This document shows positions 32,257 through 49,801 of a stretch of DNA of 64,000 bases, in pieces; the stretch's first letter is position 1; each line of letters begins with the position of its first letter. The position numbers and the translations under genes are program-made. The notes beneath the pieces were generated by a model. That model searched no databases, was not told the origin of the DNA, and saw nothing but the letters and a program-made list of their open reading frames with translations. Origin of the DNA: an uncultured Candidatus Bathyarchaeia archaeon (GTDB lineage: Archaea > Thermoproteota > Bathyarchaeia > Bathyarchaeales > Bathyarchaeaceae); assembly GCA_964623205.1 (NCBI GenBank), contig CAZUQX010000007.1, positions 12,665 to 76,664 of the forward strand, written 5' to 3'.

Positions 32257-32297
32257 AAACTCAACTCCATGCAGATTAGGAGACTAATAACAGCGTA

Positions 32298-32317
32298 TTG
32301 TTGAAAACATCCAACTA
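32298..32317 (+). repeat. attL-like site: core TTGTTGAAAA + inner arm CATCCAACTA
   Basis: Read directly: 32298-32307 is the core and 32308-32317 is the arm. The arm is the exact reverse complement of 49129-49138. Confidence 0.65.
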
Positions 32318-32414
32318 TTTGTTTGATTTTCTGTTTGGGATTTCATCTCTTTCACCAAAACGGTTCTTAGGTATCTCTAAGCTTATTTAAATTATTCGAA
32401 AGGGCTTTTTACAA

Positions 32415-33785
32415 TTATTCTGCAGGTTCATAAGATTTCCAGAAATGGAGTGTGTTCCCTGCCTTCTTGATAATATCATTATATGTTAATACTTCCACAT
32501 TATGAAAGCTCTCTTTCAATAGCGTTAGTTTCTCTTTTTGAACTTTTGTTAGTCTTGTTCCAGAAAGTGCTCCTATTACGGCTATTCCCTTTGAATTATA
32601 ACCCAATGATGTTTGTTCAATATAATAATCAACAGCTTGATTTATACCATCGTATACTTTCTTTGATAACGTGCCATCCTTATTGAATATCGGGTCATTT
32701 GCTTCTTCAAGTTCGATTAAAACACATTTGTCTAATCCATCGATACGTTCAATTATGAAATCCGCATGTTTTCTTTTGCCGATTTTTGTGTCTCCTGTTA
32801 GTTTTCCATCTGGAGTAATGTCTGAAAGGATTTTCTTGTCGAAATATTCTATACCTAAAAGCCAATAATCTTTTGCTAGCAGTTTATGTATAGCTTTTTC
32901 ATCTTTTTTCACAGAATCTTGGTGTCTTTTAATTTGTTTTTTAAATTTCCTTAAACTTCTCTGCAGTTTTTCATATCTGTCCATCATTTTGGACATTTCT
33001 GGTAGTTTCTTAATTATTTTGTTCTGGTCTCTCCTTGATAATTTAGAAAGTTGTTTAATGAAAAGTCGAGATACTTTAGATTTTAGAAGTGAATTTAATA
33101 ATTCCCCAACCTCTTCTTCACCAAGTTTCTCTATCACTTCAATGAACGTTTTGAGTTGTATTTTTGGAGCTTTGGGTTTGAGTTTCACATACTCCTTAAT
33201 AATTTCTGTCCCTAACGGTGAGTGCTCCAAGGCTTTTTTCAATTTCATTTTTTGTTCGGCAGTCATTCTGTCAAATTCTTTAATCAGATTCTCCAAAATG
33301 TTGTAATATGAATTTTTCAGTTCATTAACCAATGCATTTGGGGATTTACCTTTAAAGAAATGCTGCGGAACTTTTTTAGAAAAATCACCCCAAATTTTAT
33401 GGGAATACTTATTTAGCCTTAATTCATTAACGGCAGAATCTATTTTCTTGCCGTATTTGACATAAACATCAAAATTAATTTTAACCCAATTTTTCCCATT
33501 TTCCGTGGTTTTATAATAGGGTGCAAAGTGTTTTCCCTTGAAAAAAAGCAATTCAAAATTTTCTAATCCATCATATTCCTTTTTCATGCAGCTTAACATG
33601 TGTCTCAATTTGGTGAAACCGTATTTAATCCAATTCTCTTTCTCTTCTTTTGAGGGTCTAAATGCAAAGTAAATTTCTTTCTCCTTCAAATCGTCATAAA
33701 ATCTCCATTGTGTGCCACAACAAAATTTGTCGATTACTTGAAATTCAGGTGATGCGGGAACGCTTTTTAATTGTTTATCAATCAT
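32415..33785 (-). CDS. Shedu-like (DUF4263-type PD-(D/E)xK nuclease) defence protein with long helical N-terminal region
   Basis: 456 aa. The C-terminal part reads KAIHKLLAKDYWLLGIEYFDKK...KRKHADFIIERIDGLDKCVLIELEEAN...INQAVDYY...IAVIG. This follows the DUF4263 pattern as I remember it (pwLlG...Dfl....vivE.K...Q...Y). Confidence 0.55.
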   Translation of the reverse strand: MIDKQLKSVPASPEFQVIDKFCCGTQWRFYDDLKEKEIYFAFRPSKEEKENWIKYGFTKLRHMLSCMKKEYDGLENFELLFFKGKHFAPYYKTTENGKNWVKINFDVYVKYGKKIDSAVNELRLNKYSHKIWGDFSKKVPQHFFKGKSPNALVNELKNSYYNILENLIKEFDRMTAEQKMKLKKALEHSPLGTEIIKEYVKLKPKAPKIQLKTFIEVIEKLGEEEVGELLNSLLKSKVSRLFIKQLSKLSRRDQNKIIKKLPEMSKMMDRYEKLQRSLRKFKKQIKRHQDSVKKDEKAIHKLLAKDYWLLGIEYFDKKILSDITPDGKLTGDTKIGKRKHADFIIERIDGLDKCVLIELEEANDPIFNKDGTLSKKVYDGINQAVDYYIEQTSLGYNSKGIAVIGALSGTRLTKVQKEKLTLLKESFHNVEVLTYNDIIKKAGNTLHFWKSYEPAE

Positions 33786-33829
33786 TTATGTCGGATTCCA
33801 TCTAAACTATCCAATCATTGTGAAGTGAC

Positions 33830-34342
33830 TCAACCACGATTTTTATCAACCTCGTATTCTGCCTCTCCCTCTTCGACTCCTTTCCTCGCCTTTTCATATG
33901 CTTCTCTGGGAATTTGAAGTGAATTCTGATTTAGTTCGTTTCTAAGACATGAAAATTCCTTCAGGATTTTAGTTAGTTTATCAATCGAGCTTTCATTAAC
34001 AATATCAATCTCTCGGAATATTCTCACTCTGTTTCTCAGCGAATTGTATTTGTTGCCAGCATCTTGATGCGAACAGGTTTTTTCATTGGGATTAAGAAAT
34101 GTAATAATTGCTGTTAGTGCAGCAACGACAATAGCCATGAAAGCAGTAATGATTTCATGATAGGAAAATTGTGTTAGGGCTGAGACTCCAGAAAGTGCAG
34201 CCAATACTACTGCGGGCAAACCCAAATATCGGTGAATATTTCGCCATTTGTTTGCAGCTTCAAAATGTCCTTTTGCCGAATATAGGCAATCTTCTTCTAT
34301 TCTTTTCGCCTCATCAACAATCTTTGCTTTCAGGTCTACCAT
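33830..34342 (-). CDS. SLATT-type 2TM effector-like protein
   Basis: 170 aa. An N-terminal helix (YSAKGHFEAANKW) is followed by two TM helices (LGLPAVVLAALSGVSAL / ITAFMAIVVAALTAIITFL) and a helical tail (HQDAGNKYNSLRNRVRIF). Its start lies 11 nt after the stop of the upstream NTase gene, with GAGGT between them. Confidence 0.6.
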   Translation of the reverse strand: MVDLKAKIVDEAKRIEEDCLYSAKGHFEAANKWRNIHRYLGLPAVVLAALSGVSALTQFSYHEIITAFMAIVVAALTAIITFLNPNEKTCSHQDAGNKYNSLRNRVRIFREIDIVNESSIDKLTKILKEFSCLRNELNQNSLQIPREAYEKARKGVEEGEAEYEVDKNRG

Positions 34343-34353
34343 TTTACTACCTC

Positions 34354-35286
34354 TTAATAATATGAAGGAAAATGAGAATCAAAAACTAGGTTCCACCAGT
34401 AGAAAGCGTCAGAAATCTTTTCATTTTTTTCGGTTTCTCTCGCCTTATTTGCACGAATCAAAGCAGTTTGCAATTTTGAATATGCCTCTTGTTTTTGTGC
34501 TTCAGTTTGGCAAGCAGGAATAACCCCTGATATTCCCATTGGGTCTTGAATTCCTGCAAGACTATTACTATACAATTGGCTGAGGATTTTTCTAACATCA
34601 TATGAATACTCAATATAATCCTCACCAGAGGCGTATTTTGTTACACGTAATTCAAGGTAAAAAGATGAAATAGGAACGTTTCTAAAATACTTCCAAGCCT
34701 TTAAGAATCTAACAAGAGGTTTAACCTTGTAACCTTTCTCTTTATTAACATAAGTAACCCATGAATTATGGGCTTTTGGGGAAGAGTTCATCCATCCTCC
34801 ATTCCCATCGGGAATTTCGTAGATGTTATAGCCATTACTGCTTGTTTTGATGAAATCCGCAGGAACAACCTCAGTTGATTCTGAGGCATCTCTTCCAAAT
34901 GGAACCCAAACGGCAGGTGTTCTTACCGAAACGCCTGTATTTGGAAATCTAACATCAAGGGCATTCCGCATCTTACGAAGAGTTGTAAGGGAGTTTTCAT
35001 TTAAATTGCCTGATGGTATAACAGCGAAATAATCGACATCGCTATAACCACGAATACTGGTTGCATTCCCAAATGACCCTGTTTTGAAAAAATGTGTCAT
35101 TCCAAAGCTTGATACAAGACATGCTTTTATTGAATCACGATGTCCCTTTGCAGCCTCCGATTCTGTCAAAGTTGGCGTAAGACGACTATGAAATTCTTTA
35201 AATCCTTCTTCAACGGTCTTAGCCAAATCCTCACAACTCCGATAGTTTTTTCTTGAAGTAAAATATGAAGAATGGAACGCCACCAA
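34354..35286 (-). CDS. SMODS / CD-NTase-like minimal nucleotidyltransferase (putative second-messenger synthase); start uncertain
   Basis: TGSFGNATSIRGYSDVDYFAVIP (G-S...D-x-D), TEVVPADF (third acidic residue), W..SSPKAH and RFLKAWKYF...SSFYLEL. The ORF-track start is a TTG that overlaps the upstream small ORF. An alternative TTG at 35226 lies just after that ORF's stop. Confidence 0.65.
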   Translation of the reverse strand: MVAFHSSYFTSRKNYRSCEDLAKTVEEGFKEFHSRLTPTLTESEAAKGHRDSIKACLVSSFGMTHFFKTGSFGNATSIRGYSDVDYFAVIPSGNLNENSLTTLRKMRNALDVRFPNTGVSVRTPAVWVPFGRDASESTEVVPADFIKTSSNGYNIYEIPDGNGGWMNSSPKAHNSWVTYVNKEKGYKVKPLVRFLKAWKYFRNVPISSFYLELRVTKYASGEDYIEYSYDVRKILSQLYSNSLAGIQDPMGISGVIPACQTEAQKQEAYSKLQTALIRANKARETEKNEKISDAFYWWNLVFDSHFPSYY

Positions 35287-35431
35287 TTCCAGTAAAGATT
35301 ATCCTGAAAGTTTCGTTATTAAGATAGAGTAAGGAATCAATTACGCTGGCTGTTGCGTAAATCCCGATGATAGCGATTATTGGTATAACAAAGAAGTCTT
35401 TAATCGCCTTTTCAACTCTGTCTTCGCCCAT
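35231..35431 (-). CDS. 66-aa two-TM peptide, first gene of the cassette
   Basis: ATG at 35431 is preceded by GGAGGAG (complement of 35438-35444) with a 6-nt spacer. There are two hydrophobic helices (FFVIPIIAIIGIYATASVI, IIFTGIGGVPFFIFYF). Confidence 0.45.
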   Translation of the reverse strand: MGEDRVEKAIKDFFVIPIIAIIGIYATASVIDSLLYLNNETFRIIFTGIGGVPFFIFYFKKKLSEL

Positions 35432-35437
35432 GTAATT

Positions 35438-35485
35438 CTCCTCCTGATGATAGTTTGTTTAATATTTTGTAGCGATATATTTAAA
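35438..35485 (-). promoter_or_regulatory. SD (GGAGGAG) and TATA-like box (TTTAAATATAT on minus strand) upstream of the 4-gene cassette
   Basis: 35475-35485 ATATATTTAAA lies about 45-55 nt upstream of the ATG at 35431, inside a 187-bp AT-rich gap after the RM gene. Confidence 0.35.
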
Positions 35486-35618
35486 TGTTTGGACATAAAT
35501 ATTAAATTACTCTTTGTTATCAACTGGATTTTTGGTAATTGGCTTTTGAGTTAAACTACCCAAAGAAAAAGAAACATATGGAGAGAGTCAAATGAAACTG
35601 CTAACTCTGAAATGAAAA

Positions 35619-38345
35619 TCATAGATTTCCTTCGATAATCCTTTGCTCTTTCTCGGTTATTCCATAAATCTTGTAAACCAGCTCGTCAATTTGGCAGTTA
35701 ATTTTGTCCATTTCCTTCTCAAGTCTAGCCCGTTCATCTGTCATTTTGTCACCAATTTGGTTTACACGAGCTTTGAGAGACAGCATCCTATTAACAAGTT
35801 GTATTAATGTTTGTTCAGATTCTTGAGCAACTTTTATCGGAAGTTCTTCCAGAAACTTAGTTCTATACCTCAAATAGCCTCCACCCATATGCATACCACC
35901 AAATAATACAAAATAAACAAAAGAAACCAGTTTTGAATTGAGCAAGCCGAGAATATATTCTAATGAAGTGTTTTCATTTTTCAATACCCCAAAATAAACT
36001 CCGCCTTGTGGTATTCTCTTCTCATAATCCATGGTAGCAGTTATTCTTAACGCATCTTCAGCGATGACAATTTTTCTTTTTAAACTGTTTACATACCTTT
36101 TTGATGTTGTGCTTATGACTTTTTTTAAGTTATTTTTTGTTATATAGCTGCCTTTGCTAATTGAACTGTATCTATCGAATTGATATTGTTTCAAAATTTC
36201 GAAATCATTAACAATGTTCTCTTCTAATGTTGTTGGTATTCTTAGCCCTTCAGAAATCTTAAGGTATTTTGATAATTTATCGCATTTTCTCAGTAATTTT
36301 ATAACAATGTCAAATTGTTCTTGGCTAATATTAATTGGGAAGATTTTTGAAGGCAAAACTTCCAAATCCCTTCGTGTTAGCCAATAATTTACAAAATTTT
36401 TATTTAAGAATTCATCACGTGTTGATACCGAACCGATATTAATCCTTTTTACATTTTTTCCCTTTGTAAGAAAAAGAAGAACTGGATAATTTGCAGCCTC
36501 TTTAAAAATATCTAAATGGCTAACACTTATAATTGTGCAATGGCTTGAATTCTTTACAATAATTTCCCTCAGTTTTTCAGCAGAACTGGCAGCACAAAAT
36601 TTGTTCGGCAAGATGAAGCCACATTTCCCACCTTCTTGCAACCACTTGAAAACGCTTTCAATAAACAAATAGTAGATGTCGTATTTTCCATAAGCTGAAC
36701 TAAAAACATCTTTCCAATATGTTTTTTCAACAATTTTTAGGTTATCTACTCTAACATACGGTGGATTTCCGATAACAACATCAAATCCTCCTTCTTTCAT
36801 TATGTCATCGAATTCATCTTCCCATCGAAAAGCTATGTTGCCTGCAATATTTTCATCGTCAATTATCGAGTTTCCCCGCCTGATGCTTTCTTCCAGTAAT
36901 GGTAATCTATGTCCCTTCTCAGCTATTTTGAGTAATAGATTGAGTTGTGCAATTTCAACTGCCTGTTTGTCTAAATCGACACCAAAAATATTGTCTTGGA
37001 GAATTTTTGCCTTTTTTGTAAATGGAATATCAATTTTTTGTTTGTCCAACTGAGTTTGACTATAATCCTTGATATTTTTCTTATAATATTCATCGAAAAT
37101 ATCGAATGCTTTAATCAGGAAGCTACCTGAGCCACAAGCAGGGTCTAATACTCTAATTTCTTCTACGTTGACTTTCTTTTTTTCCAGAATTTTGCCTAGA
37201 GTATTCCTAACGATGTAATCAACGATGTAGGTTGGAGTGTAGTAAATTCCCTGTTCTTTTCTATGTATCCCATTTTTGGTGACTCTTGCTCTTTTTGCAG
37301 TCTTTTTCAAAATGTGACTTAAGTATTGCTCATAGATGTTACCTAAAACGTCAGCATCGATTACTGAAAAATCGTAAGAAATAGAGAAATACTTCTCTTT
37401 TGTGAAATACAACCCCTTTATTATTTCAGATAATATTTCGTTATCAATTTCTAGTTGGTCACACAAATGTTTAGTAAATATCTTGCTGTCATAGTGTTCA
37501 TCAAAGTAACTGAAAATCTCTCTGAGACCTTTTACTAATTTTCCTCTGCCTCTGCTTCTCCATTCCCTTAATTTTGAAATCAAAAGTTTTTCTTCAAGCT
37601 CTTTGTCTTCACAATTTCGAATAAAAATAAGCCTGTCTAAGATTCTTTGAACTGACTCGTCCAACTCTTCTTTTGACAACTTTTCTTTTACGTTTAATTT
37701 CGTTATGCTCTTTGTGAGCATTCTTCTATATTTTGTAAAGTCCTCAAGAAGTTGCTCATCTATGGATGCTTTCTTAGTCTTTTTACTCCGTCTTTCTGCT
37801 GTTTCATCTAACAAACCTTTTTCGAAACTTTCTTTCGACAAAAGCCATAATTCATCAAATCTTTCAAGAAAATCGTCATACGTGATGGTTGTAAAATGGC
37901 TCTGTAAATAGTTAGCTGCCTTCCACTCAGCATTAAGAATTTTCACAGCTTCAAAATCTGTAAGAACTGCCCATGTGCAACCTTTATGCCATGCATAGCT
38001 GATTGCCTGCTCAAAATACTCTTCTTTATCCAAATCTGCTTTTAGTGACTTTGCTTCTAGGTAGAATTTTGGAATTCCATCAATTCTGAAACCATAATCC
38101 ACACGCTTTTTAGAAATTGTTTCTTCGGCAGTAACCTCTTTGGAATCTTGAAAATTCCAACCTAGTGCACGAAATAAAGGTTGAATGAAACCAATTTTAG
38201 TCATCTCTTCATTGTATTCTTTGACTCTATTTTCCTCTACAACTTTGTTGTATTTTTCTACAAGTTCTGCGATTTCGCTTCGAGCTTTTTCTTTGTCCAT
38301 TGTGGATACTAATTTTGTGGTTTCGATTATAACTTTTTGGGGCAT
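35619..38345 (-). CDS. Type IIG restriction endonuclease / N6-adenine DNA methyltransferase fusion (Eco57I-like)
   Basis: 908 aa. The N-terminal PD-ExK nuclease is of HsdR-N type (VDYGFRIDG..FYLEAKS). Methyltransferase motifs are VLDPACGSGSFL (motif I) and VVIGNPPYV (motif IV). The C-terminal specificity region ends in KIYGITEKEQRIIE. Confidence 0.85.
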   Translation of the reverse strand: MPQKVIIETTKLVSTMDKEKARSEIAELVEKYNKVVEENRVKEYNEEMTKIGFIQPLFRALGWNFQDSKEVTAEETISKKRVDYGFRIDGIPKFYLEAKSLKADLDKEEYFEQAISYAWHKGCTWAVLTDFEAVKILNAEWKAANYLQSHFTTITYDDFLERFDELWLLSKESFEKGLLDETAERRSKKTKKASIDEQLLEDFTKYRRMLTKSITKLNVKEKLSKEELDESVQRILDRLIFIRNCEDKELEEKLLISKLREWRSRGRGKLVKGLREIFSYFDEHYDSKIFTKHLCDQLEIDNEILSEIIKGLYFTKEKYFSISYDFSVIDADVLGNIYEQYLSHILKKTAKRARVTKNGIHRKEQGIYYTPTYIVDYIVRNTLGKILEKKKVNVEEIRVLDPACGSGSFLIKAFDIFDEYYKKNIKDYSQTQLDKQKIDIPFTKKAKILQDNIFGVDLDKQAVEIAQLNLLLKIAEKGHRLPLLEESIRRGNSIIDDENIAGNIAFRWEDEFDDIMKEGGFDVVIGNPPYVRVDNLKIVEKTYWKDVFSSAYGKYDIYYLFIESVFKWLQEGGKCGFILPNKFCAASSAEKLREIIVKNSSHCTIISVSHLDIFKEAANYPVLLFLTKGKNVKRINIGSVSTRDEFLNKNFVNYWLTRRDLEVLPSKIFPINISQEQFDIVIKLLRKCDKLSKYLKISEGLRIPTTLEENIVNDFEILKQYQFDRYSSISKGSYITKNNLKKVISTTSKRYVNSLKRKIVIAEDALRITATMDYEKRIPQGGVYFGVLKNENTSLEYILGLLNSKLVSFVYFVLFGGMHMGGGYLRYRTKFLEELPIKVAQESEQTLIQLVNRMLSLKARVNQIGDKMTDERARLEKEMDKINCQIDELVYKIYGITEKEQRIIEGNL

Positions 38346-38747
38346 CTTAGTTAGTCACTTATCTCCCCTACCTTTTTTCGTTGAATCTGATTCTGCATAG
38401 CTATTCCAAAAATCATCTTTTGTTGGAAAGCGGTTTCAAAAGTGTTATTAAGATGGTCAAGTGCGATTATTTTGGGGGTTGACTGAGGATACTGCCTTCT
38501 TAGGAAGTGCATATATCACACCAACTCAGTCATTTCCCCCATATGAATAAGCATTTTCTGTAAAAATTCTCTGATTCTTTCGGTGTCCAGAAAATCGTCC
38601 TTATGTAGGCTTATGTAAATATCCATTTTTTGTGACTTTTTAAGATTTTTAGCGGTTAATTTTGACGAAAAACAAAAAATATTGGTTTTTTAGGCTTTAT
38701 GGATAGTTTTATATGCTGTTTGACCCTAGTTTCTTGCGGTGTGATGT

Positions 38748-39003
38748 ATGCAAAAGAAAAATAAGGGCAAAATTAGCGGAGCGTTGAGGCTGGTTTTTTT
38801 GCTATCTAGCCTCAAAGTTACGTTTCAAAAATTTTGGAGGGTCAAAGCTGTCTAGTTTTTCACGGAAGCATTACAGAGCCATAGCTGAGATAATCCGAAA
38901 CGCTGAAACAAAATATCAGGTAGCTCAAGATTTAGCTGAGATGTTCGCAGCAGATAACTACCGATTCGACTACCAGAAATTCTTCAAGGCTTGCAATTTG
39001 TAG
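38748..39003 (+). pseudogene. Small ORF interrupted by a +1 frame change at a T7 run (frameshifted gene, slippery site or sequencing artefact)
   Basis: The ATG at 38748 opens MQKKNKGKISGALRLVF... The run at 38794-38800 is TTTTTTT. The +1 frame continues without any ATG/GTG/TTG start as ...SSFSRKHYRAIAEIIRNAETKYQVAQDLAEMFAADNYRFDYQKFFKACNL, ending at TAG 39001-39003. Confidence 0.3.
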
Positions 39004-39013
39004 AGGCTTAAAA

Positions 39014-39169
39014 ATGAAGATGCAGATTTTCAAATACAAAGTTAACCGTAGTATGAAAAAGTGTCTGCTAATCGGCATCGAAAAACCAAACAAAGTTGTT
39101 CTGGTTCACATAGGAAAAGTGTTCAAACCCTTAGACGCACAGCGAATAATAGAGCAATGCAAAAGGTGA
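39014..39169 (+). CDS. 51-aa hypothetical protein (below ORF-track cutoff)
   Basis: My own translation: MKMQIFKYKVNRSMKKCLLIGIEKPNKVVLVHIGKVFKPLDAQRIIEQCKR. It ends 4 nt before the TTG start of the ATPase ORF. Confidence 0.3.
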   Translation: MKMQIFKYKVNRSMKKCLLIGIEKPNKVVLVHIGKVFKPLDAQRIIEQCKR

Positions 39170-39173
39170 AAAG

Positions 39174-40448: not shown

Positions 40449-40498
40449 CTAGTTAATTCTTGGTATGTATTGGCGGTTCATAACTTTAAAGACACTGT

Positions 40499-41311: not shown

Positions 41312-41341
41312 TAGTTGGATGTTGTTAGTAAGTTCCAACAA
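41312..41341 (+). repeat. Internal degenerate attP-like site (24/30 identical to the attP reconstructed from the island ends)
   Basis: TAGTTGGATG-TTGTTAGTAA-GTTCCAACAA compared with the predicted TAGTTGGATG-TTGTTGAAAA-CATCCAACTA. A core-like TTGTTGAA also sits at 41303-41310. Confidence 0.5.
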
Positions 41342-41557
41342 AAAGTTGGGTTTTTTATCCTGTGATGGGTTTAGTTAATCGTCATTTATTGTTAAAATTG
41401 ATAGATTTTTCGCATGTTTTGTAGCAATAATGCAACAATTTAATGAGAAAACACTCCCAGAACGTCCTGACCCCTTCTACTAACTGCATAAACAATACAC
41501 AAAACATAGTCTATCGGTTTCGGTTGGAGTAAAAAATATGTTCAAATTGGCTAGGGC

Positions 41558-41586
41558 ATATACATTGTCACGGTATATACATTGTC
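41558..41586 (+). promoter_or_regulatory. Tandem ATATACATTGTC repeats (17-bp period) about 100 bp upstream of the TIR-like gene
   Basis: 41558-41569 and 41575-41586 are identical 12-mers. They are followed by TTTGTAG repeats. Confidence 0.4.
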
Positions 41587-41683
41587 GTTTTTTTGTAGCG
41601 TTTCTTTGTAGTGTGTAGTTTATTGGTTTTCGTTAGGACAATAATCTTATGAATTGCATTGTCCCAATTGTAACTGATTCAGA

Positions 41684-42583
41684 ATGCCTTTCTATCACGT
41701 TAGGATAACCAAGAAAAGCAGAACAACAAACGACAGGCTTGCATTAGACCTCTCCAAAGATGAATTGATGGCGAGAATCGTTAATCCTTTCTTAGAAGGA
41801 AAAACATTCATGTGTGGTGGGGAGCCGATTGACCCTTTTGATGTTGCTGTAATTCACATCAATGAAACAGAAAGAAAATCTGCTGACCTAATTCCTGAAA
41901 TCAAAGCTGAGAGAGCAAGGTCTAGAGTTGCTGTGGCAATTTCTAATGAGTGGTATGTTACTAAGAAGGGGAAAGATGTGACTAGAGAGTTGATTACTCA
42001 TCCTCCAAAAAAGCAAGAAACTGTGAAAGTTACTGTTGAACTGAGTAAAAACGTGTTTATTGTTCATGGCAGAGACCATGAGCCAATGAAAGAGCTAAAA
42101 ACAATGCTCTTGGAATTTGGTCTCAACCCTATTGTTCTTCATGAACAACCAAGCGGAAGCAGAACAATTGTAGAAAAATTAGAGAAATATTCTGATGTTG
42201 GTTACGCTTTTGTGATTTTAACTCCAGAAGATGTTGGATGTTTGAAAAATAAAATTAGGGAAAAGATAAACTCAGTTCTTAAACTTACTGAAGACAAAAA
42301 ACCAAGGTCTTTGATAGCTGACATTCATTCTATAGGAGTAATACGTGCTTATATGCATGAAATGAATGCATATCTTAGTCCTAGAGCCCGTCAAAATGTT
42401 GTTTTGGAGTTTGGCTATTTCATGGGCTTGTTGAGTCGTGACCGAGTTTGTTGTTTGCTTAAAGGAGACGTAGAAAAGCCCTCAGACATGCACGGAATAG
42501 TATACGTTCCTTTCAAGGATTCTGTTGAAGAAAGACGCAGTATGATAATTAAGGAACTTAAAGAAGCTGGTTTTGAACTTTAA
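41684..42583 (+). CDS. TIR-like domain protein (Cap12/PycTIR-type predicted nucleotide-binding/NADase effector) with unknown about 120-aa N-terminal domain
   Basis: The C-terminal half reads NVFIVHGRDHEPMKELKTMLLEFGLNPIVLHEQ...YAFVILTPEDVG...ARQNVVLEFGYFMGLLSRDRVCCLLKGDVEKPSDMHGIVYV. This matches my memory of the TIR-like family pattern (fIvHG.d...a.vllTpDD...aRqNV.fElGyf...PSD..G..y). Confidence 0.65.
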   Translation: MPFYHVRITKKSRTTNDRLALDLSKDELMARIVNPFLEGKTFMCGGEPIDPFDVAVIHINETERKSADLIPEIKAERARSRVAVAISNEWYVTKKGKDVTRELITHPPKKQETVKVTVELSKNVFIVHGRDHEPMKELKTMLLEFGLNPIVLHEQPSGSRTIVEKLEKYSDVGYAFVILTPEDVGCLKNKIREKINSVLKLTEDKKPRSLIADIHSIGVIRAYMHEMNAYLSPRARQNVVLEFGYFMGLLSRDRVCCLLKGDVEKPSDMHGIVYVPFKDSVEERRSMIIKELKEAGFEL

Positions 42584-42589
42584 AAGTGA

Positions 42590-42871
42590 TTAGGCTTTTC
42601 CCCTTGAAATTAATCTTCTTGCTATGCCTATCGTGTTTAAGGCTACATTTTCCGTGCACAAAAATTCGTCCATGAAATCGTCTTTTACTTCTGCTATCAG
42701 TTCTTGAACCTGTTCTATTAGTATCCACTCTTCTGGGTCTGAGATGTTTTGCTTCTCGGAAATGATTCCATATTTGTTTTCGTATTCATCCATGAGTTTC
42801 AGGTAATTTTTTATTGTGCCCCTATGGTTCGCAAGTATCCATTCGATTTTTTTTCGTCTAGTCTGTGGCAT
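42590..42871 (-). CDS. Hypothetical 93-aa protein (last gene of a 3-gene minus-strand unit)
   Basis: ORF only. It starts 12 nt downstream of the 42884 gene. Confidence 0.4.
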   Translation of the reverse strand: MPQTRRKKIEWILANHRGTIKNYLKLMDEYENKYGIISEKQNISDPEEWILIEQVQELIAEVKDDFMDEFLCTENVALNTIGIARRLISRGKA

Positions 42872-42883
42872 ATCATTTTTTCC

Positions 42884-43234
42884 TCATGGTATTTTTGGCG
42901 ATAGTTGTTTTCTTAATTTGCATAACTTTTCAATTGTTTCTCGGTCATGTGTTCGGATTAGGCTCTTGTCTATGAGGGCAACTAAGCCATGTTTCAAAAT
43001 CTCTTCTAAGCTGTATGCGTCATAGAACTTTTTGATTTCATTTGCGTAAATGAGTGTTTCAGTTGAAATTCTGATTGATGTGCCCGATTTTTTGGCTAAC
43101 TTTAGCGGTTCTGTGGCGAACTCGACCTTTTCTGGTTTAACTAAATTCAAAGCTTCTAGCGGAATTTCCAGTTTGAGAGGAACTGACTTTTTGCCTTTCA
43201 GTCGCTTATCGTCAGGTTTTATCAGTTCTGTCAT
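42884..43234 (-). CDS. Hypothetical 116-aa protein
   Basis: Its start overlaps the stop of the upstream gene by 4 nt (43231-43234), which suggests translational coupling. Confidence 0.4.
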   Translation of the reverse strand: MTELIKPDDKRLKGKKSVPLKLEIPLEALNLVKPEKVEFATEPLKLAKKSGTSIRISTETLIYANEIKKFYDAYSLEEILKHGLVALIDKSLIRTHDRETIEKLCKLRKQLSPKIP

Positions 43235-44022
43235 GGTCTCAATCCTCTCTGAATGATTGTTGTTCCGCTTTTTGCTTCAATCAATGCATTGTAGGCTTTG
43301 ACTTCCTCAACATATTTTTTGAATTCTTTAAACAGTTTTTCTGCCTTTTGTATCGTTTTTTCGTTGTATGCTATTGTCTCCTTTTCTTCTTTGGTTATTC
43401 GCTTATTGTATTGCATAATTTTCTTATTTTGTTCCTCAACTTTTTTGAAAAATTGTTTCGCTTCTTTGATTGTTTTAAGAGTTTCAGATTTTTTGTTTTC
43501 AGTTTCTTCAACAAATTTGAGAACTTTTTTTAAAAGCTCTTTGACCTGTTTTTTTCGACTCTTCTCAAGAGCCAAAATCTTATCCTGTTTCTCTCTGACC
43601 CGTTGCATCCAATCATGAAAATTTTGGATTAGGTCTTTTCTTGTTTCAGCGTCCTTTCTGGTTTGTTCCAGCAAACAGTTCTGAAACACATCTACAAAGG
43701 TTTTGAAATTTTGTAATTGGTCTAAGTATTTGGCACGGATTTCCTCATTCAATTCTCTGGTTTCTTGTTCGTCTTCTGCGTGTTGTTGCCTTAAAGCATC
43801 AATTTCGTCCAAAATTATTGACTCAATATCTTCTAACTGTTCTTTCATGGTTTCCTGAAAACTTTTTTTCCGTAGGCTTCTCTGTCCAGCTAACCAACTT
43901 GAAGCCCTCCCCAAATCAACCTCTTCCGATTCGACTGATTCGTTTTCTTCTTCAATTTCTTCCGAATCGATTTCTTCGCTTTTCAATTTTTTTAGGTAAG
44001 CCTCCATCTTTTTGTTCGTCAA
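43231..44022 (-). CDS. 263-aa highly charged coiled-coil protein
   Basis: An acidic N-terminus (EEIDSEEIEEENESVESEE) is followed by E/K/Q-rich heptad-like sequence throughout. Confidence 0.5.
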   Translation of the reverse strand: MTNKKMEAYLKKLKSEEIDSEEIEEENESVESEEVDLGRASSWLAGQRSLRKKSFQETMKEQLEDIESIILDEIDALRQQHAEDEQETRELNEEIRAKYLDQLQNFKTFVDVFQNCLLEQTRKDAETRKDLIQNFHDWMQRVREKQDKILALEKSRKKQVKELLKKVLKFVEETENKKSETLKTIKEAKQFFKKVEEQNKKIMQYNKRITKEEKETIAYNEKTIQKAEKLFKEFKKYVEEVKAYNALIEAKSGTTIIQRGLRP

Positions 44023-44053
44023 ATTGAATTCCTCATTCTTTGCATGCAGTTTG

Positions 44054-44082
44054 TATACATATATTATACATAATTATACATA
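44054..44082. promoter_or_regulatory. Three direct TATACATA boxes at 11/10-bp spacing in a divergent promoter region
   Basis: The boxes are at 44054-44061, 44065-44072 and 44075-44082. CACGTGAT at 44227-44234 and the 10-bp palindrome ATCACGTGAT at 44268-44277 lie downstream. Confidence 0.4.
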
Positions 44083-44229
44083 TAAGTTTTATTGTTAATA
44101 CAAGAAGAATATATGTGTGAATCAACATAATATATTGTGTTTCATAGACACCAGAATTTGAAACGTTTCTAGGTAAAAAGGGAACATCCAAATTCCTTCT
44201 TTTCTTTTAACAAAAATTCTTATCAGCAC

Positions 44230-45108
44230 GTGATTAAAACATTTTTTGTCAAATATTTTTTTATTTCATCACGTGATAACAAAAAAAGCATAAACGATAC
44301 CTTTATAACGAACTTAACGAATACATTTCATGATAAAATGGATTGGCGGAACATGACCGATATTGAAGAAAAAGCTGTTGGAATTGCTGAAATTATTTGG
44401 CATGACCGATATTTTCGAAAAGGATTCTTTAGACAATTTTACGATTGCCTTCATGAAGCCCTTAAGATTTGTGACCAAAAATATCCTCAAAGTCAGTTGG
44501 ATTCTTTCAGGATTGCTGTTCCGAAATGGCGATTCAAACGGGAAATCCAATTAGCTAATGATTGTTATCGACTTTTCAAAATCCATAATTCCCTAGAAGA
44601 TAGAAAGAAAATGAGACATACGAGATATTTTTGGTTCATGGACGGAATTTCTAAGAAGCGAACTGAGCTTGATTGTTGGGATACGGTTAGAGTTTTTGAC
44701 GGTCAAATTTTGCCGTGTGGTTCCTGTTGCATAATTGAATCTCCCCATTTTATGCAACTGAAAGCAAAGAAAACGGATACATTAACTCAATTAATTGTTC
44801 ATGAAATCGTAGATGCCTTAGAATCAAAGGATTGCTGTAGGTTACAAGAAGAAACCAAGAAACGAAACTCGTGTGCTAATGGCTATAAATCCCATGAAAA
44901 ACACCACGACCAAATCATACTCGCAGAGCAATGGCTCTATAACCGATTCCATAAAAAGAGACCCGATTACTACACACCATTCGAAGACGAACAGTTACGA
45001 ATCCTATATCCGAAAGCCTCTAGAGAGACACTTGAAAAAGAATTGAAATTCCGTTCTTGGAAGTCTATCCGCTCAAGAGCTTACGACTTGGGAATAAAAA
45101 GAATTTGA
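44230..45108 (+). CDS. Hypothetical protein with C-terminal Myb/SANT-like helix region; true start probably the ATG at 44338
   Basis: The ORF-track GTG start runs through the CACGTGAT palindromes. The first Met (MDWRNMTDIEEK) is codon 37. The C-terminus is LRILYPKASRETLEKELKFRSWKSIRSRAYDLGI. Confidence 0.45.
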   Translation: MIKTFFVKYFFISSRDNKKSINDTFITNLTNTFHDKMDWRNMTDIEEKAVGIAEIIWHDRYFRKGFFRQFYDCLHEALKICDQKYPQSQLDSFRIAVPKWRFKREIQLANDCYRLFKIHNSLEDRKKMRHTRYFWFMDGISKKRTELDCWDTVRVFDGQILPCGSCCIIESPHFMQLKAKKTDTLTQLIVHEIVDALESKDCCRLQEETKKRNSCANGYKSHEKHHDQIILAEQWLYNRFHKKRPDYYTPFEDEQLRILYPKASRETLEKELKFRSWKSIRSRAYDLGIKRI

Positions 45109-45193
45109 GAATCTTCAATCTAGCCTTTATATATCAAAACGCATGGGGAAACGCATGATTCCAAAATTAGCCAAAAAGGAGGTGTGACAAATA

Positions 45194-46288
45194 TTGACAC
45201 AATCCAGTAAGTCAGTTAATCAATCCAAAAATACGCATGATAATAACCATAAATCACAATATACTATAAAAAAGTCCAAACATCAAACTAGACCTACCCT
45301 TAGACCTCTCCAAACTTATAAAAACATGATAGAAAAACATTGTAAACCCTTTAATTTGGCTTGGTTGGATTCTGGAATTGATTATCTAATAACCTGTATC
45401 GACAACTACGATTTTACGCATGATTTTTCTTTGACCCAGAAGGAAATCCCAGAACTTAAAGATGTGCTACGGCTCATGATTGTTAGAGGGATGTATGTCA
45501 GGTCTCTTGACGTGGTAAATAAACTTAAAATCTCTAGAAGAACCGCACAAAAATATCTTCTAAGACTTTGTAAATTAAGATGGTGTATGCGTGGTCGTTG
45601 GGTAACGTATAACGACATAAATCCATTCCTGCAATTTCTGATTTACCTTTCTCCAAAAAAGATGGGGCAGCTCATACATTTCTTCGCTCCTAGGCAGGTC
45701 GATTTGTTGAACCTCTTATCATACTCACTCTTGGAAGCTATAGATGAAAAAGTTAATGATGTCAAATTCATTTGGAGTCAAAAAGAACCAGATTTTGGCA
45801 ATGACTATTTTCCGTCCCTTCAGCATATTGGAAAATTCTATCCATATTTCAACGGAACGGTTCAAATTAAAGCCGAAACAGAAAGCCGAGATTATTATTC
45901 GACCCTTCCGTATAACATCCATTGGACGGGAAGGAATTCTCACATTACCCTTCCAATTCCCTTCAAATTCTATGGAGTTCAAGATGTTGGATACTCATCC
46001 AAAATTAACAAGCTGAAAGTCCATTTCGACAATTCGATAACAGTTGGGATTCCTTTAGGGTCTGCCAGTTATTCAAGTCGAAAATTACTAAATGAATGGG
46101 GACTAAAGCATTGGAGCGATATGGCAAATAGCTTTATGAACAAATACTGGAAAAACGAATATGTAGAGACCTTTAATTTCCAAACCCATGAAGAGATAAT
46201 AAAGAATAGATTACTCTACAAAGCAATCCCGATTAAACAGGTATCACAAAAGACATTTCTCTTAAAGCAATGTCTAGCTGAGATATAA
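45194..46288 (+). CDS. Hypothetical 364-aa protein with putative wHTH (possible replication/partition-type function)
   Basis: LKISRRTAQKYLLRLCKLRW is an HTH-like stretch. There are no enzymatic motifs. Confidence 0.4.
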   Translation: MTQSSKSVNQSKNTHDNNHKSQYTIKKSKHQTRPTLRPLQTYKNMIEKHCKPFNLAWLDSGIDYLITCIDNYDFTHDFSLTQKEIPELKDVLRLMIVRGMYVRSLDVVNKLKISRRTAQKYLLRLCKLRWCMRGRWVTYNDINPFLQFLIYLSPKKMGQLIHFFAPRQVDLLNLLSYSLLEAIDEKVNDVKFIWSQKEPDFGNDYFPSLQHIGKFYPYFNGTVQIKAETESRDYYSTLPYNIHWTGRNSHITLPIPFKFYGVQDVGYSSKINKLKVHFDNSITVGIPLGSASYSSRKLLNEWGLKHWSDMANSFMNKYWKNEYVETFNFQTHEEIIKNRLLYKAIPIKQVSQKTFLLKQCLAEI

Positions 46289-46389
46289 GTTCATTTTCTA
46301 TTCAAAAACCACTCTTTCTCAATTTCATTATGCGATATTGTAAACAAAATGTAAAAACTTATAAGTAAGTTTATACATATATTTATTAG

Positions 46390-46638
46390 ATGATAAAAAT
46401 GCAGCATAAATATGCATTCATAAGAATAAGAAAAGAAACAAAGGAAAAGCTTGATACATGGGCAAAAATTTGTGACAAGAAATTGATTAACATGCTAGAT
46501 GAAATCATAGACGCTTATCGGGACACTATTCTAATCAGCAACATCAATCGTTTACTAAACAGTCCAAACGCAGACGATGTTTTCTATGTCGCTAACGAAG
46601 TCGCTAAATCAATCATTAAGAGGGATAACAATGACTGA
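46390..46638 (+). CDS. Small possible ribbon-helix-helix protein
   Basis: AFIRIRKETKEKLDTWAKICDKKLINMLDEIIDAY has a beta-strand plus two-helix pattern. A TATACATA box at 46372-46379 suggests a leaderless start at ATG 46399. Confidence 0.4.
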   Translation: MIKMQHKYAFIRIRKETKEKLDTWAKICDKKLINMLDEIIDAYRDTILISNINRLLNSPNADDVFYVANEVAKSIIKRDNND

Positions 46639-47341
46639 ACCAATTTGTGAAAATTGTGGAAAGCCATTAAACGAATGTCAATGCGAAGAACCAAAGATTT
46701 CAGTTTCAAAAGCTAGAGAGCCTGACAGGATTGTCAGAATTGAATCTGTGCAAGTCCCTAGTAAAGAAGAGTTTGAGAAGGTCAAAAAACAAAAAGAGGA
46801 TTATGAACGAATTATCGCACTTCAGGCTGAAAAAAGCTTCAGAGACGAGCTTTCAGAATTTTTGTCTCAAGTAGATGACGATGAAAAACGGGAAGCAATT
46901 GAGAAAATGATTGACAACGACCCAGAAAGGTTAGAAAATGCTAAAATGATGACTTCAATTCTGGAACAGGCAATTCATGCTGGTGGTGGTCGAGTTACTG
47001 GAAGAAGAATGCCTAGCGGAAAAGCCTCATTGCCTCAAAATAATTCAGGTTTTTCAGACAGTTACAAAGAATACGTTGATACGTTGTATGAAACTCTCAA
47101 AGACCCAAGTAAATCTGACCTAGAAAAAGAATCAGCAAATCAGATGCTTGACCAATTGTTCGGTGAAATGGTGAAAGGACTTCGTGTAGCTAAAGGAAAA
47201 TATGGTCATGCCGTGCCATCATACCAAGTTACGGAGTGTCCTAACTGTCGCTTGTTGCTTACTGGAGAACGGGGCGAAGAAATCGATTATTGTCCTCGCT
47301 GTGGATGGCAGAAATACGTGAAGTCTGCGAGACGGGCTTAG
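46631..47341 (+). CDS. Zinc-ribbon protein (Cys pairs at both termini)
   Basis: The ATG at 46631 overlaps the upstream stop (ATGACTGA). N-terminal CENCGKPLNECQC and C-terminal CPNCRLLL...CPRCGW. The ORF track lists 46577 as an upstream alternative start. Confidence 0.5.
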   Translation: MTEPICENCGKPLNECQCEEPKISVSKAREPDRIVRIESVQVPSKEEFEKVKKQKEDYERIIALQAEKSFRDELSEFLSQVDDDEKREAIEKMIDNDPERLENAKMMTSILEQAIHAGGGRVTGRRMPSGKASLPQNNSGFSDSYKEYVDTLYETLKDPSKSDLEKESANQMLDQLFGEMVKGLRVAKGKYGHAVPSYQVTECPNCRLLLTGERGEEIDYCPRCGWQKYVKSARRA

Positions 47342-47380
47342 GCTGTTTTTTATGCCTACCGTCTTAGCCATCATGGATTA

Positions 47381-47827
47381 ATGGATGGAAGAAAAATGCT
47401 AAGAAAAAAGAAAGTTAGTCTCGTCTTGTCTGTTGCCCTTTCTGACAGGGAAACATTCAAAGTTCTACCTGACAAGAAGCAACAAAAGAACATCTACGAC
47501 AGAGTTCGCAATAGGCTAGTTCGTCAGGGAGTAGAGGACGATTTACTGCAAACTAGATTAATTGCTGAAATCCGTTCTGAACTCTTTAAACTTCAACCCA
47601 AATTCAACCCAAAATCTTCTGAATCCGAAATTCAAAGCAATAAAGAATCATTTTTTGACAGAAATTTTAGAATTAGAGGTTTTGACGTTTGGAGCGAACA
47701 CGAAGAGTCTATAGACCCAATTCAGCAACTTCAGGACAATTACAATCGAACCGTAGAAGAGGGATTCAGAGATGTTTTCTGTCCTATCTGTCATTGCGAA
47801 AAATCTTGCTGTCGATGTCACGAATAA
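47381..47827 (+). CDS. Hypothetical 148-aa protein with Cys-rich C-terminus
   Basis: The C-terminus is CPICHCEKSCCRCHE. Confidence 0.4.
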   Translation: MDGRKMLRKKKVSLVLSVALSDRETFKVLPDKKQQKNIYDRVRNRLVRQGVEDDLLQTRLIAEIRSELFKLQPKFNPKSSESEIQSNKESFFDRNFRIRGFDVWSEHEESIDPIQQLQDNYNRTVEEGFRDVFCPICHCEKSCCRCHE

Positions 47828-47843
47828 AAAAAGTGGAAGAAGA

Positions 47844-49124
47844 TTATTCTTCCGCTTGCTTTTTCTCTAGTTTCTTAATTACGCCTTTGTAGTCAGCCAA
47901 CAGGTCTAAAGCTGGTTGAACTTGTGTCTGCAAATCAAAAATTGTCTGTTTTGCTTCGGACAGTTCTTTTTGCTGATTATTGGTGGTTTCTTGAAGTAAA
48001 TCCACTCTTGTCTTAAATGCAGAGTTTTCCCTCTCAATCTGCTGAATAGCCTCCTTCATTTTCTCTATTTGTTCCTGTTGATTCTGCCTAGTTTTTCCTG
48101 ATATATCTCCATTGAGAGACAAATTCTTGTAAGCCAAACGAAAGATTTTCTCAGCTTGGTCTTCCAGTTCTTCGTATGTCATGTCAGAAACGCTTACAGA
48201 TTTTGCACAGATTATTTTCGCCATGTCTTTATCTATTCGTCTTAATCTGCTGAAAGTGAATTTTCGGATACAATGAAATCTAACTCTCTTTTTCCCGATG
48301 TTGATGTTTGCTTTAGTTACTAATCTTCGAAGTTTTTTGTTTAATCCTTCATTTGAGATGGGTTTGTCTGGTTTGCTGTTGCACCAGATGTATTTTGGGA
48401 GTTTTCCTTTTTTCTTTTCCAGCACCTTCAAGTATGCATTAACACTTTCTATGGCTTCAGGAGTCAAAAATGAGATTGGCTGAATTCCTGTTTTTTGTCG
48501 TGGCTGACCTATCCATTTGGCAAAGTCTAAGCCTCTCTGTTTAGCATCATCAATAATCTCTCTAAGTTTCTGTGCCTCTATCCTAAGAAAATCCTTGCTT
48601 CCCTGTCCATAGCTAACCGCCAATGAAATCAATGCTTTTTCTGCGACATCTCCAAAATGGAACATCTTGCGTAAATCGTCTTGACTGAATCGATATTCAT
48701 CTTGTGGCATCTGAGTAGGTGCAAAAGAATCCATTACGCCTTCTATTGCTTTACAATTTTGATGATAAAACGCTAATACTGCACTCCCCATTTCATTGCA
48801 ATAGTTTGTTGAATATGGTTTGTTGCTTTTTGGATTAATCTGCTTTCTGAACCAGTTATAGAACTCGATTATTCGGTTAGAAATGTCTCTTTCCCATTCA
48901 TCCAAGTTGTTGAGCATTTTTTCCTGTTTATATTCTTCAATCAATTGTTCTGGGGTCTTGTCAGTCCAGAAACAGTATTTCTTAAATCTGCTCGAATGGC
49001 TCCGCTTCGTAGATTCTTTGCATCTAGGAAAATACTTGAGGTAGTCAGCGTTTTTCTTGCTAATCATTTCTGGTTTTTGGTTTTCTTCATATTCTGTTTT
49101 AGGGTTTATGGATTCAAAATCCAA
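47844..49124 (-). CDS. Tyrosine recombinase / integrase with about 90-aa C-terminal coiled-coil extension
   Basis: 426 aa. VRFHCIRKFTFS (H-x-x-R) is followed by AKSVSVSDMTYEE (candidate catalytic Tyr). The N-terminal region resembles a SAM-like core-binding domain. TTG start per the ORF track. The gene abuts the attR-like site. Confidence 0.7.
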   Translation of the reverse strand: MDFESINPKTEYEENQKPEMISKKNADYLKYFPRCKESTKRSHSSRFKKYCFWTDKTPEQLIEEYKQEKMLNNLDEWERDISNRIIEFYNWFRKQINPKSNKPYSTNYCNEMGSAVLAFYHQNCKAIEGVMDSFAPTQMPQDEYRFSQDDLRKMFHFGDVAEKALISLAVSYGQGSKDFLRIEAQKLREIIDDAKQRGLDFAKWIGQPRQKTGIQPISFLTPEAIESVNAYLKVLEKKKGKLPKYIWCNSKPDKPISNEGLNKKLRRLVTKANINIGKKRVRFHCIRKFTFSRLRRIDKDMAKIICAKSVSVSDMTYEELEDQAEKIFRLAYKNLSLNGDISGKTRQNQQEQIEKMKEAIQQIERENSAFKTRVDLLQETTNNQQKELSEAKQTIFDLQTQVQPALDLLADYKGVIKKLEKKQAEE

Positions 49125-49128
49125 CTTG

Positions 49129-49148
49129 TAGTTGGATGTTGTTGAAAA
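49129..49148 (+). repeat. attR-like site: inner arm TAGTTGGATG + core TTGTTGAAAA
   Basis: Read directly. It lies 5 bp outside the integrase ORF start. The adjacent 49121-49135 CCAACTtgtAGTTGG is itself a 6-bp-arm palindrome. Confidence 0.65.
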
Positions 49149-49237
49149 TAAGCTTTTTCCAGAAAAACCAAGCGAACCATGAACTCCACTTAGAATAGAA
49201 GGTTAAAGGTTTTTAGCTTTAGCCTGTTTAAGTTACA

Positions 49238-49759: not shown

Positions 49760-49801
49760 CCCGCCTTAATCGACAAAGATTTTAAGTATGTTCGCTGACA
49801 T

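Follow-up and report, generated by a model that had tools for sequence, protein, structure and literature searches.

How did a block of AT-rich DNA come to lie between two host genes of a Bathyarchaeia archaeon? The block is part of a 64,000-nucleotide stretch from an uncultured Candidatus Bathyarchaeia archaeon (assembly GCA_964623205.1, contig CAZUQX010000007.1), here called the window, and is flanked by a histone-deacetylase family (HDAC) gene and a gene for a winged helix-turn-helix (wHTH) regulator. We conclude that positions 32308-49138 are very probably a mobile element that was inserted by its own tyrosine integrase through conservative site-specific recombination. The element is of a known type, and its mechanism, canonical tyrosine-recombinase integration with a short attachment (att) site, is conventional. 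The new details are the integrase family, the host group, a symmetric attP (the att site of the element) with four boxes, and a repeated target motif in the host.

Ends of the island and the empty site

The island is bounded by a 10-bp direct repeat, TTGTTGAAAA, with one copy at 32298-32307 (attL core) and another at 49139-49148 (attR core); these and all other parts of the att sites are given as read on the plus strand. At the left end TTGTTGAAAA is followed by CATCCAACTA at 32308-32317, and at the right end TAGTTGGATG at 49129-49138 is followed by TTGTTGAAAA. The arms CATCCAACTA and TAGTTGGATG are reverse complements of each other at every position, and each sits on the island side of its core, exactly as a preliminary description of this DNA had read them. 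No other 10-nt direct repeat with 10-nt inner inverted arms occurs in the window. In Markov simulations that modelled the AT-rich compartment separately, such a 10+10 arrangement arose on average 0.03 times per window, with one instance in 3 of 100 simulated windows, so that the arrangement is unlikely to be due to chance, although the figure of 0.004 given in the preliminary description was about 10-fold too low.

A change in composition accompanies the repeats, as had been claimed from inspection of the sequence. A three-segment maximum-likelihood fit to the GC profile placed breakpoints at 32274 and 49291, which are 24 nt and 143 nt away from the repeats, with a GC content of 35.6% within the island and 44.6% outside it. 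The integrated element (32308-49138; 16,831 bp, GC 35.6%) is 100% identical to an independent Logan contig, L120, and is not present at this locus in the related loci L001, L002, and L006.

Both flanks can be traced in relatives. On the left lies the HDAC gene (31405-32256, plus strand; Pfam PF00850, E 1e-55), orthologues of which are found in 80 Bathyarchaeia loci at 87-60% identity, indicating that the host is a Bathyarchaeon close to Ca. Bathyarchaeum. The wHTH gene on the right (49259-49759, plus strand; weak match to Pfam HTH_24) precedes an arginine-tRNA ligase gene (50260-52206, plus strand; NCBIfam NF002446, E 2e-207) that is syntenic in L001-L003, which identifies the right flank as core chromosome.

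The HDAC gene is directly followed by the wHTH gene in three loci, namely L001 (CP070820, Ca. Bathyarchaeum sp.), L002, and L006. Synteny in L001 and L002 continues through the next small gene and the arginine-tRNA ligase gene, and the L006 contig stops inside the wHTH gene. The intergenic sequence of all three reads ...TTAGGAGACTAATA-N7/8-ATTGTTGAAAAC-N4-TTTTT..., contains a single TTGTTGAAAA, and aligns base for base with the flanks of the window joined at one TTGTTGAAAA. For example, L006 reads ...TTAGGAGACTAATAACAGCTGATTGTTGAAAACAGCCTTTTTTCAAAAAAACCAAG..., and the empty attB (the chromosomal site) derived from the window is ...GACTAATAACAGCGTA-TTGTTGAAAA-TAAGCTTTTTCCAGAAAAACC.... The empty site predicted between the HDAC-family and wHTH genes is thus present in relatives, and none of the 80 related loci contains a homologue of an island gene.

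A tRNA gene was considered as the target and rejected, since ARAGORN and Rfam (at the gathering threshold and at E<=1) gave no match to a tRNA or to any other RNA family in or around the site; no tRNA was found anywhere in the window by these two programs. The preliminary description had stated that the element is not inserted in a nearby tRNA. The insertion is indeed intergenic, but the nearby tRNA itself was not detected by ARAGORN or Rfam. At 23773-23790 lies GGATTTGAACCCC, which looks like a tRNA T-arm read as its complement; it is kept in L002 at 2536, with no tRNA call from either program, and may have been the source of that remark.

A divergent tyrosine integrase at the right end

The gene next to the right end (47844-49067, minus strand) encodes 407 amino acids from its likely ATG. 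Across an alignment of 37 family members R152, K211, R287, and Y317 are invariant and H284 is conserved in at least 90%, with residues numbered from a longer, TTG-started open reading frame (ORF); by the same alignment the usual second His/Trp position appears to be K308. An AlphaFold2 (AF2) model (predicted local distance difference test, pLDDT, 87.7) contains a helical core-binding domain and a catalytic domain, the two-domain fold of tyrosine recombinases. Foldseek matched this model to XerA (5hxy, E 3e-7), IntI (2a3v), lambda Int (1p7d), XerH (5jjv), Tn1549 Int, and Cre in the PDB, over about 270-370 columns each. Based on its conserved catalytic residues and predicted fold, we assign the protein as a divergent tyrosine recombinase, in agreement with the identity first proposed for the ORF beside the right site.

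A profile search of 1.84 billion representative proteins found 1,344 relatives at E<=0.001 and 107 at E<=1e-30, which we read as a small, divergent family. No relatives were found in IMG/VR or in the deposited phage and plasmid collections searched, the latter two by tblastn. The model also has an 80-90-amino acid C-terminal extension that forms a single long coiled-coil helix (47844-48100, minus strand; residues ~344-425). This helix, for which the PDB matches are coiled-coil proteins only, is present but variable across the family and is unusual for the enzyme class; it might help to bring sites together or to form tetramers.

In homologues the protein starts at the position of the ATG at 49067, and the AF2 model shows no structure for the first 18 residues of the longer ORF, which was called mechanically from a TTG at 49124. 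The integrase therefore probably starts about 62 nt from the arm of the att site, and the distance of 5 bp between the right site and the recombinase ORF in the preliminary description does not hold for the likely start.

Architecture of attP and a proposed mechanism

Joining the two ends of the element gives attP as TAGTTGGATGTT-GTTGAA-AACATCCAACTA, a perfect 12-6-12 palindrome that reaches two bases into the 10-bp repeat. Imperfect pairing (22 of 28 positions) carries the palindrome out to about 28 nt on either side and yields two ATCCAAC-type boxes per side, four in all. Its full form is [ATCCAACT-TGT-AGTTGGAT]G-TTGTTGAAAA-C[ATCCAACT-ATTT-GTTTGAT], and the junction predicted for the free element is ...AAAATCCAACTTGTAGTTGGATG-TTGTTGAAAA-CATCCAACTATTTGTTTGATTTT.... 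The preliminary description had reconstructed a 10-10-10 palindromic attP; the exact inverted arms stand, but the actual geometry is 12-6-12 within the longer imperfect four-box palindrome.

The P arm, beside the integrase gene (49116-49138), reads AAAATCCAACT-TGT-AGTTGGATG, has two inverted boxes, and is conserved in L081, L117, and L118. The P' arm, far from the integrase gene (32308-32335), consists of CATCCAACTA followed by TTT-GTTTGAT, with one exact and one degenerate inverted box; the first 10 nt of this arm pair exactly with 49129-49138, and further pairing is imperfect. A search of viral_contigs for the arms alone returned a single match, L119, which was rejected as an unrelated long hairpin, at about chance expectation.

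Xer/dif sites have an 11-6-11 layout and are cleaved at the edges of the spacer (PMC8371274). The 6-nt spacer and the arm length of attP match this layout, from which we infer by analogy a 6-nt overlap at GTTGAA, so that the crossover region is probably 32300-32305. In the mechanism that we propose, integrase monomers would bind the inverted boxes of attP, which would pair with a chromosomal attB sharing only the 10-bp TTGTTGAAAA. Strands would be exchanged inside TTGTTGAAAA, most likely with a 6-nt stagger around GTTGAA. The attB lies within an approximately 60-nt terminator-like motif after the HDAC stop codon, and insertion there breaks no gene and leaves the wHTH promoter intact. Strand exchange at these positions, binding of all four boxes, and mobility of the element today are what this scheme predicts.

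Related elements and integrase subgroups

The integrases of L081/L082, L117, and L118 are 69-70% identical to that of the window. In each of these, TTTTCAACAA-CATCCAACTA-N2/3-AGTTGGAT precedes the integrase gene and is joined to the same T-rich half of the host motif, with different neighbouring host genes. The gene calls P0001, P0002, P0003, and P0006 translate across the att site as ...FSTTSNYKLDF, and this read-through indicates that the site is conserved at the DNA level. These calls (on contigs L118, L117, and others) start too early and translate the att site together with host flank (...KRLFSTTSNYKLDF...), an annotation artefact.

In L084, which encodes a 63% identical integrase, the host hairpin and ...TTGAAAA-CATCCAAC-AAAAA-GTTGGAT lead into the integrase gene. 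Here the integrase gene lies at the opposite junction relative to the host motif, and the insertion in L084 appears to have the reverse orientation with respect to its integrase gene.

A second subgroup of integrases (45-48% identical; L085-L092, L095, L109) is joined to host DNA at the motif's hairpin, some 22 bp upstream of where the crossover lies in the window, as ...GTTTTGTTTGCTCCT|ATTAGGAGCCTAAT-N8-ATTGTTGAAAAC.... The junction forms the palindrome GCTCCTA-T-TAGGAGC and was located at L085 113-126, L088 9359, L091 1891-1904, L092 1616-1629, L095 43-56, and L109 113-126. Each of these junctions represents one end of its element. L115, with a 59% identical integrase on a 188-kb contig, was considered as a relative with two ends and set aside; it has an AT-rich block of about 7 kb in which att repeats were not identified.

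The original proposal of a site-specifically integrated element with attL and attR is therefore supported by the empty site in relatives, the identity of the recombinase, and the conservation of the site in related elements.

A repeated target motif in the host

In the window the att cores are flanked by the two halves of a host motif (both read on the plus strand). The left half (32275-32297) consists of the hairpin-like ATTAGGAGACTAAT and a spacer of 8-9 nt, begins 19 nt past the HDAC stop codon, and is conserved in L001, L002, and L006. The right half (49149-49175), TAAGC-TTTTTCCAGAAAAACCAAG, aligns with the sequence downstream of the core in the same three loci. The complete motif is about 60 nt long, (C)AT-ATTAGGAGACTAATA-N7/8-ATTGTTGAAAAC-N4-TTTTTTCTGAAAAACCAAG, and ends in a T-run, CTG, and an A-run. 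It occurs at 23 distinct places in 1.52 Mb of fetched Bathyarchaeia loci, among them L001 10873, L002 10865/19387, L016 10872/12343/17779, L025 351/14070/14152, L024 2555/9016, and L088 2194/9359; the window holds one copy. The motif usually begins 14-25 nt past a stop codon, which belongs to the HDAC gene at this locus and to EamA transporter genes at other places.

No match to the motif was found in Rfam. A CRISPR-like repeat or a small RNA was rejected as its identity based on this lack of an Rfam match, on a hairpin that varies without compensatory changes in our reading of the alignment, and on the irregular spacing of the copies. From its sequence we read it as a terminator-like or protein-binding DNA motif. 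We tentatively propose, at somewhat less than even confidence, that the dispersed motif ATTAGGAGACTAAT-N8-ATTGTTGAAAAC-N4-TTTTTTCTGAAAAACCAAG serves as the target, that the integrase subgroups cross over at different points within it, and that the spacer alone sets the orientation of insertion. The last point follows from the near-perfect symmetry of attP, with which only the 6-nt spacer would set orientation.

In other relatives the interval between the HDAC and wHTH genes is filled by other inserts of 1-9 kb or by repeated copies of the motif, showing that the locus is a variable spot. The inserts in L003, L016, and L025 comprise EamA transporter genes, a glycosyltransferase gene, and an insertion sequence (IS) element. 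They were considered as products of this integrase and rejected, as no related integrase is present there, and they show only that the locus is variable. Two or three whole copies of the motif lie at this locus in L016 (10872-17800), L025 (10861-14175), and L004 (10861-14170), where they enclose EamA transporter genes together with a glycosyltransferase gene and an IS element with a DDE transposase, with no related integrase; two of the copies in L025 are just 82 bp apart. In L092 (1616-7376) a subgroup-2 integrase has the motif beside it in inverted orientation and is just 2.6 kb away from the arginine-tRNA ligase gene, with the wHTH gene absent, which suggests a rearrangement or a small remnant element at the locus.

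Evidence against integration and alternative explanations

Several observations weigh against integration by the element's own integrase. The arms of attB resemble those of attP only weakly in our reading of the alignment, the exact attP expected at a circular junction is absent from viral_contigs, and no excision factor was identified for the element. All empty sites come from other species (80-87% protein identity), none from the same strain. L120 (Logan SRR14802572_15617), which corresponds to window positions 32280-49966 at 100% identity and is the only other assembly of this strain, passes attR unbroken and gives no hint of an empty-site subpopulation. The match of the integrase to Pfam PF00589 (Phage_integrase; 24.4 bits, E 2.9e-5) is below the gathering cut-off of 27.1, the integrase sequence itself matched none of the solved structures, and the family profile matched no recombinase among PDB sequences.

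The left break of L120 is 18 nt left of the attL core, within the host hairpin, and may reflect a k-mer shared among the many copies of the motif and not an empty-site variant. Exact-protein look-ups returned no record for the HDAC ORF, with which an island-free contig of the same strain was sought, none for P0100, and for the wHTH gene the island-bearing Logan contig as the sole record.

Among the alternatives, the one that survives best would refine integration by a tyrosine integrase rather than replace it. According to this explanation, which we regard as unlikely but worth retaining, two elements were fused, either in tandem at the same attB or by recombination of attP with attP, and the left half, with the Shedu-like, CBASS (cyclic oligonucleotide-based antiphage signalling system), restriction-modification, and ATPase genes, lost its own integrase. 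The decayed middle att site would be an attP-like site at 41312-41360 (plus strand), TAGTTGGATGTT-GTTAGT-AAGTTCCAACAA-AAA-GTTGGGT. This third, degenerate copy (41312-41341) matches attR at 17 of 20 positions, where 0.03 such matches are expected; its left arm is perfect (12/12), its right arm good (9/12), and its TCCAACAAAAAGTTGG is shared unchanged, over 16 nt, with the integrase-proximal arm of L084. The site falls in a non-coding gap of 950 bp, and tandem arrays of tyrosine-recombinase elements are known (PMC6563490). On the other hand, L087, with its subgroup-2 integrase, matches the island collinearly to the left and to the right of the internal site and has a homologous but degenerate region there. 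The ATPase assigned to the left half co-occurs with related integrases in the L088-L091 elements, and the halves are alike in GC content (35.0% and 36.3%). Moreover, the internal site falls within a 74-86-nt local duplication among short repeats, which is more like an origin or operator array.

The non-coding region around the internal site (40730-41683) is rich in repeats, with several short tandem repeats in addition to the 74-86-nt duplication, is partly conserved in L087, and is possibly an origin or regulatory region. A regulatory or origin-associated role of the internal site is at least as likely as a decayed middle att site. The tandem repeats include three pairs of 13-15 nt (41555-41586, 40953-40978, and 41586-41611). 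A weak Rfam match to AgvB sRNA on the minus strand at 41533-41598 (27 bits against a gathering score of 56, E 0.033) overlaps them and is probably due to chance.

We consider it very improbable that the island is a cut-and-paste transposon or a casposon-like element, with CATCCAACTA...TAGTTGGATG as terminal inverted repeats and TTGTTGAAAA as a 10-bp target-site duplication from a staggered cut. Inverted ends that abut a short direct repeat are the typical look of a transposon insertion, an empty site with one 10-mer fits both models, and casposons with terminal inverted repeats and target-site duplications occur in related archaea (PMC6563490). However, no DDE transposase, Cas1, or other transposase was found among the island ORFs of at least 50 amino acids scanned with Pfam, PHROGs, NCBIfam, and PADLOC, and the only recombinase of the island is the tyrosine integrase beside its end. 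The identical 10-mer is present at independent insertions in different genomes and gene contexts, which a transposon would not explain. The internal site, too, supports site-specific recombination, because its two arms surround a core-like 10-mer in the layout of an attP and not of transposon ends. Precedents for short att sites (8-14 bp) and for intergenic targets exist among archaeal elements (PMC8371274; PMC6563490).

Some bacterial elements exploit host Xer recombinases. We give equally little credence to the corresponding explanation here, that host XerA acts at a dif-like site and that the element's own recombinase has another role, for example multimer resolution at the internal site. 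The 12-6-12 layout resembles the 11-6-11 of dif (PMC8371274), and the closest solved folds to the integrase are those of archaeal XerA. The target motif, by contrast, is multi-copy (23 places in 1.52 Mb) and no unique terminus site. The sequence of the boxes changes together with the integrase clade, the subgroup-2 junction being different, and the boxes directly precede the element's own integrase gene in every relative.

That the repeats are coincidental and the AT-rich block arrived by another route, such as homologous recombination in the flanks, is effectively excluded. Although 3 of 100 simulated windows do hold one such arrangement, the repeats match the GC change points and the synteny break against three empty sites, and the site is conserved before related integrase genes.

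Gene content of the element

The first genes inside the left end are all on the minus strand and related to defence. A Shedu-like gene with an SduA C-terminal nuclease domain (32415-33785; Pfam PF14082, E 1.6e-11; PADLOC SduA, E 1e-8) has its 3' end at the left end of the island. It is followed by a two-gene CBASS (33830-35286; Pfam SMODS and SLATT_4) that consists of a two-transmembrane (2TM) SLATT effector (33830-34342; PADLOC E 4e-66) and an oligonucleotide cyclase (34354-35286; PADLOC E 5e-116). Next is a type IIG restriction-modification enzyme of Eco57I/MmeI-like type (35619-38345; Pfam Eco57I, E 6e-41; PADLOC REase_MTase_IIG, E 3e-131), with homologues in the related elements L087, L104, and L085. 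A TIR-domain defence gene of the PDC-S35 / CAP12-Pycsar TIR type lies further right on the plus strand (41684-42583; Pfam PF10137, E 1e-32; PADLOC PDC-S35, E 1e-62). The CBASS, type IIG, TIR, and SduA-like systems are thus clustered, as in a defence island.

Between these genes, at 39174-40448 (plus strand), is a gene for a HerA/FtsK-type P-loop ATPase (AF2 pLDDT 75.7; top Foldseek matches HerA, STIV B204, and FtsK), a copy of which, 79.5% identical, lies beside a subgroup-2 integrase in L091. The predicted superfamily fold would fit a role in DNA translocation or transfer, in packaging, or in defence. In PHROGs the ATPase matched a terminase family weakly, through its P loop (E 6e-6), and the fold match to STIV B204 is no better than those to HerA and FtsK. 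The protein has an N-terminal helical domain and 161 unnamed homologues, one of them from a Heimdallarchaeota metagenome-assembled genome.

Seven ORFs (42590-47341) had no significant Pfam, PHROGs, NCBIfam, or PADLOC matches; one encodes a 254-amino acid zinc-ribbon protein (46577-47341) with homologues in L086-L088. Convergent with the integrase gene is a 148-amino acid ORF (47381-47827, plus strand) with a Cys-rich C terminus, CPICHCEKSCCRCHE. Proteins 42-62% identical to it are encoded beside the integrase gene in L085, L086, L087, and L097, the convergent arrangement being constant among related elements, and it may be a candidate accessory or directionality factor.

Counterparts of the 148-amino acid ORF, the zinc-ribbon protein, and the ATPase occur in related elements, as do versions of the restriction-modification and TIR genes, and L087 shows collinearity with the island at several points over its length. 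The element belongs to a mosaic Bathyarchaeia family that shares the integrase, its 148-amino acid neighbour, the zinc-ribbon protein, and the HerA/FtsK-type ATPase. No capsid or conjugation genes were recognised in the island, and the description that suits it best is a cryptic integrated element carrying defence genes, of the sort catalogued in Thaumarchaeota (PMC6563490).

Comparison with known systems

The cryptic integrated elements of Thaumarchaeota carry the integrase at one end and have att sites of at least 8 bp (median 17 bp), about a fifth of them intergenic; they have mosaic genes, can form tandem arrays, and lack hallmark genes of viruses or conjugation (Krupovic et al. 2019, PMC6563490). 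The element described here is similar in organisation, with its terminal tyrosine integrase, short intergenic att site, mosaic content, and apparent lack of recognisable virus or conjugation hallmarks. It differs in its Bathyarchaeia host, the 12-6-12 four-box attP, the repeated terminator-like target, and a cargo that is mostly for defence.

In pNOB8-type integrases the gene stays whole on integration and attP lies outside it, and in both respects the integrase reported here is alike. The att sites of that type are typically 40-50 bp long and located in tRNA genes (PMC8371274). The site in the window, in contrast, is 10 bp long and intergenic, and it is by these att features that we set the two apart. 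SSV-type integrases have attP inside the gene, so that integration splits it. Here the integrase ORF is intact with the arm 62 nt upstream, and the left end of the island holds the 3' end of another gene and no integrase fragment.

The Xer/dif systems (XerA, XerC/D, XerH) provide the closest solved folds and likewise have inverted arms around a 6-nt spacer. They differ in that the recombinase here is encoded by the element and has an extra 80-90-amino acid coiled coil, that attB shares the core only, and that the host site is multi-copy. The integrase gene lies in the AT-rich island and not at the same locus in relatives, which, together with the multi-copy host motif, places it outside Xer/dif. 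The lox and FRT sites, to which the preliminary description had likened the core site, are 13-8-13, and both partner sites are identical. Cre/loxP and Flp/FRT resemble the present system in having inverted binding sites around a short asymmetric spacer that sets orientation; here, however, the two partner sites agree only in the core, and attP has a second pair of boxes further out. Finally, as in hotspot defence islands on integrative elements, several unrelated defence systems are found together and the same host locus holds other insertions, but here the host is an archaeon (Bathyarchaeia) and the boundaries are known to the base.

Implications

Bathyarchaeia are abundant in sediments. To our knowledge, they have no genetic system, and few of their mobile elements have been described. 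The papers found on mobile elements of Bathyarchaeia report viruses (PMC10541130), and a 2021 review of archaeal tyrosine recombinases mentions Bathyarchaea once, for a eukaryotic-type topoisomerase IB (TopoIB) and not for integrases (PMC8371274). The integrase reported here has a compact, fully specified attP (30-56 bp) and a roughly 60-nt attB, and it might be developed into a tool for integrating DNA in this lineage. The element also provides a base-resolved case of bacterial-type defence systems (CBASS, Shedu-like, type IIG, and TIR) moving on an archaeal integrative element, and offers a lead on a conserved, repeated intergenic motif that draws insertions. If the motif is indeed the target, every copy of it would be a landing pad for defence-carrying elements, an archaeal parallel to elements that target repeated host sequences.

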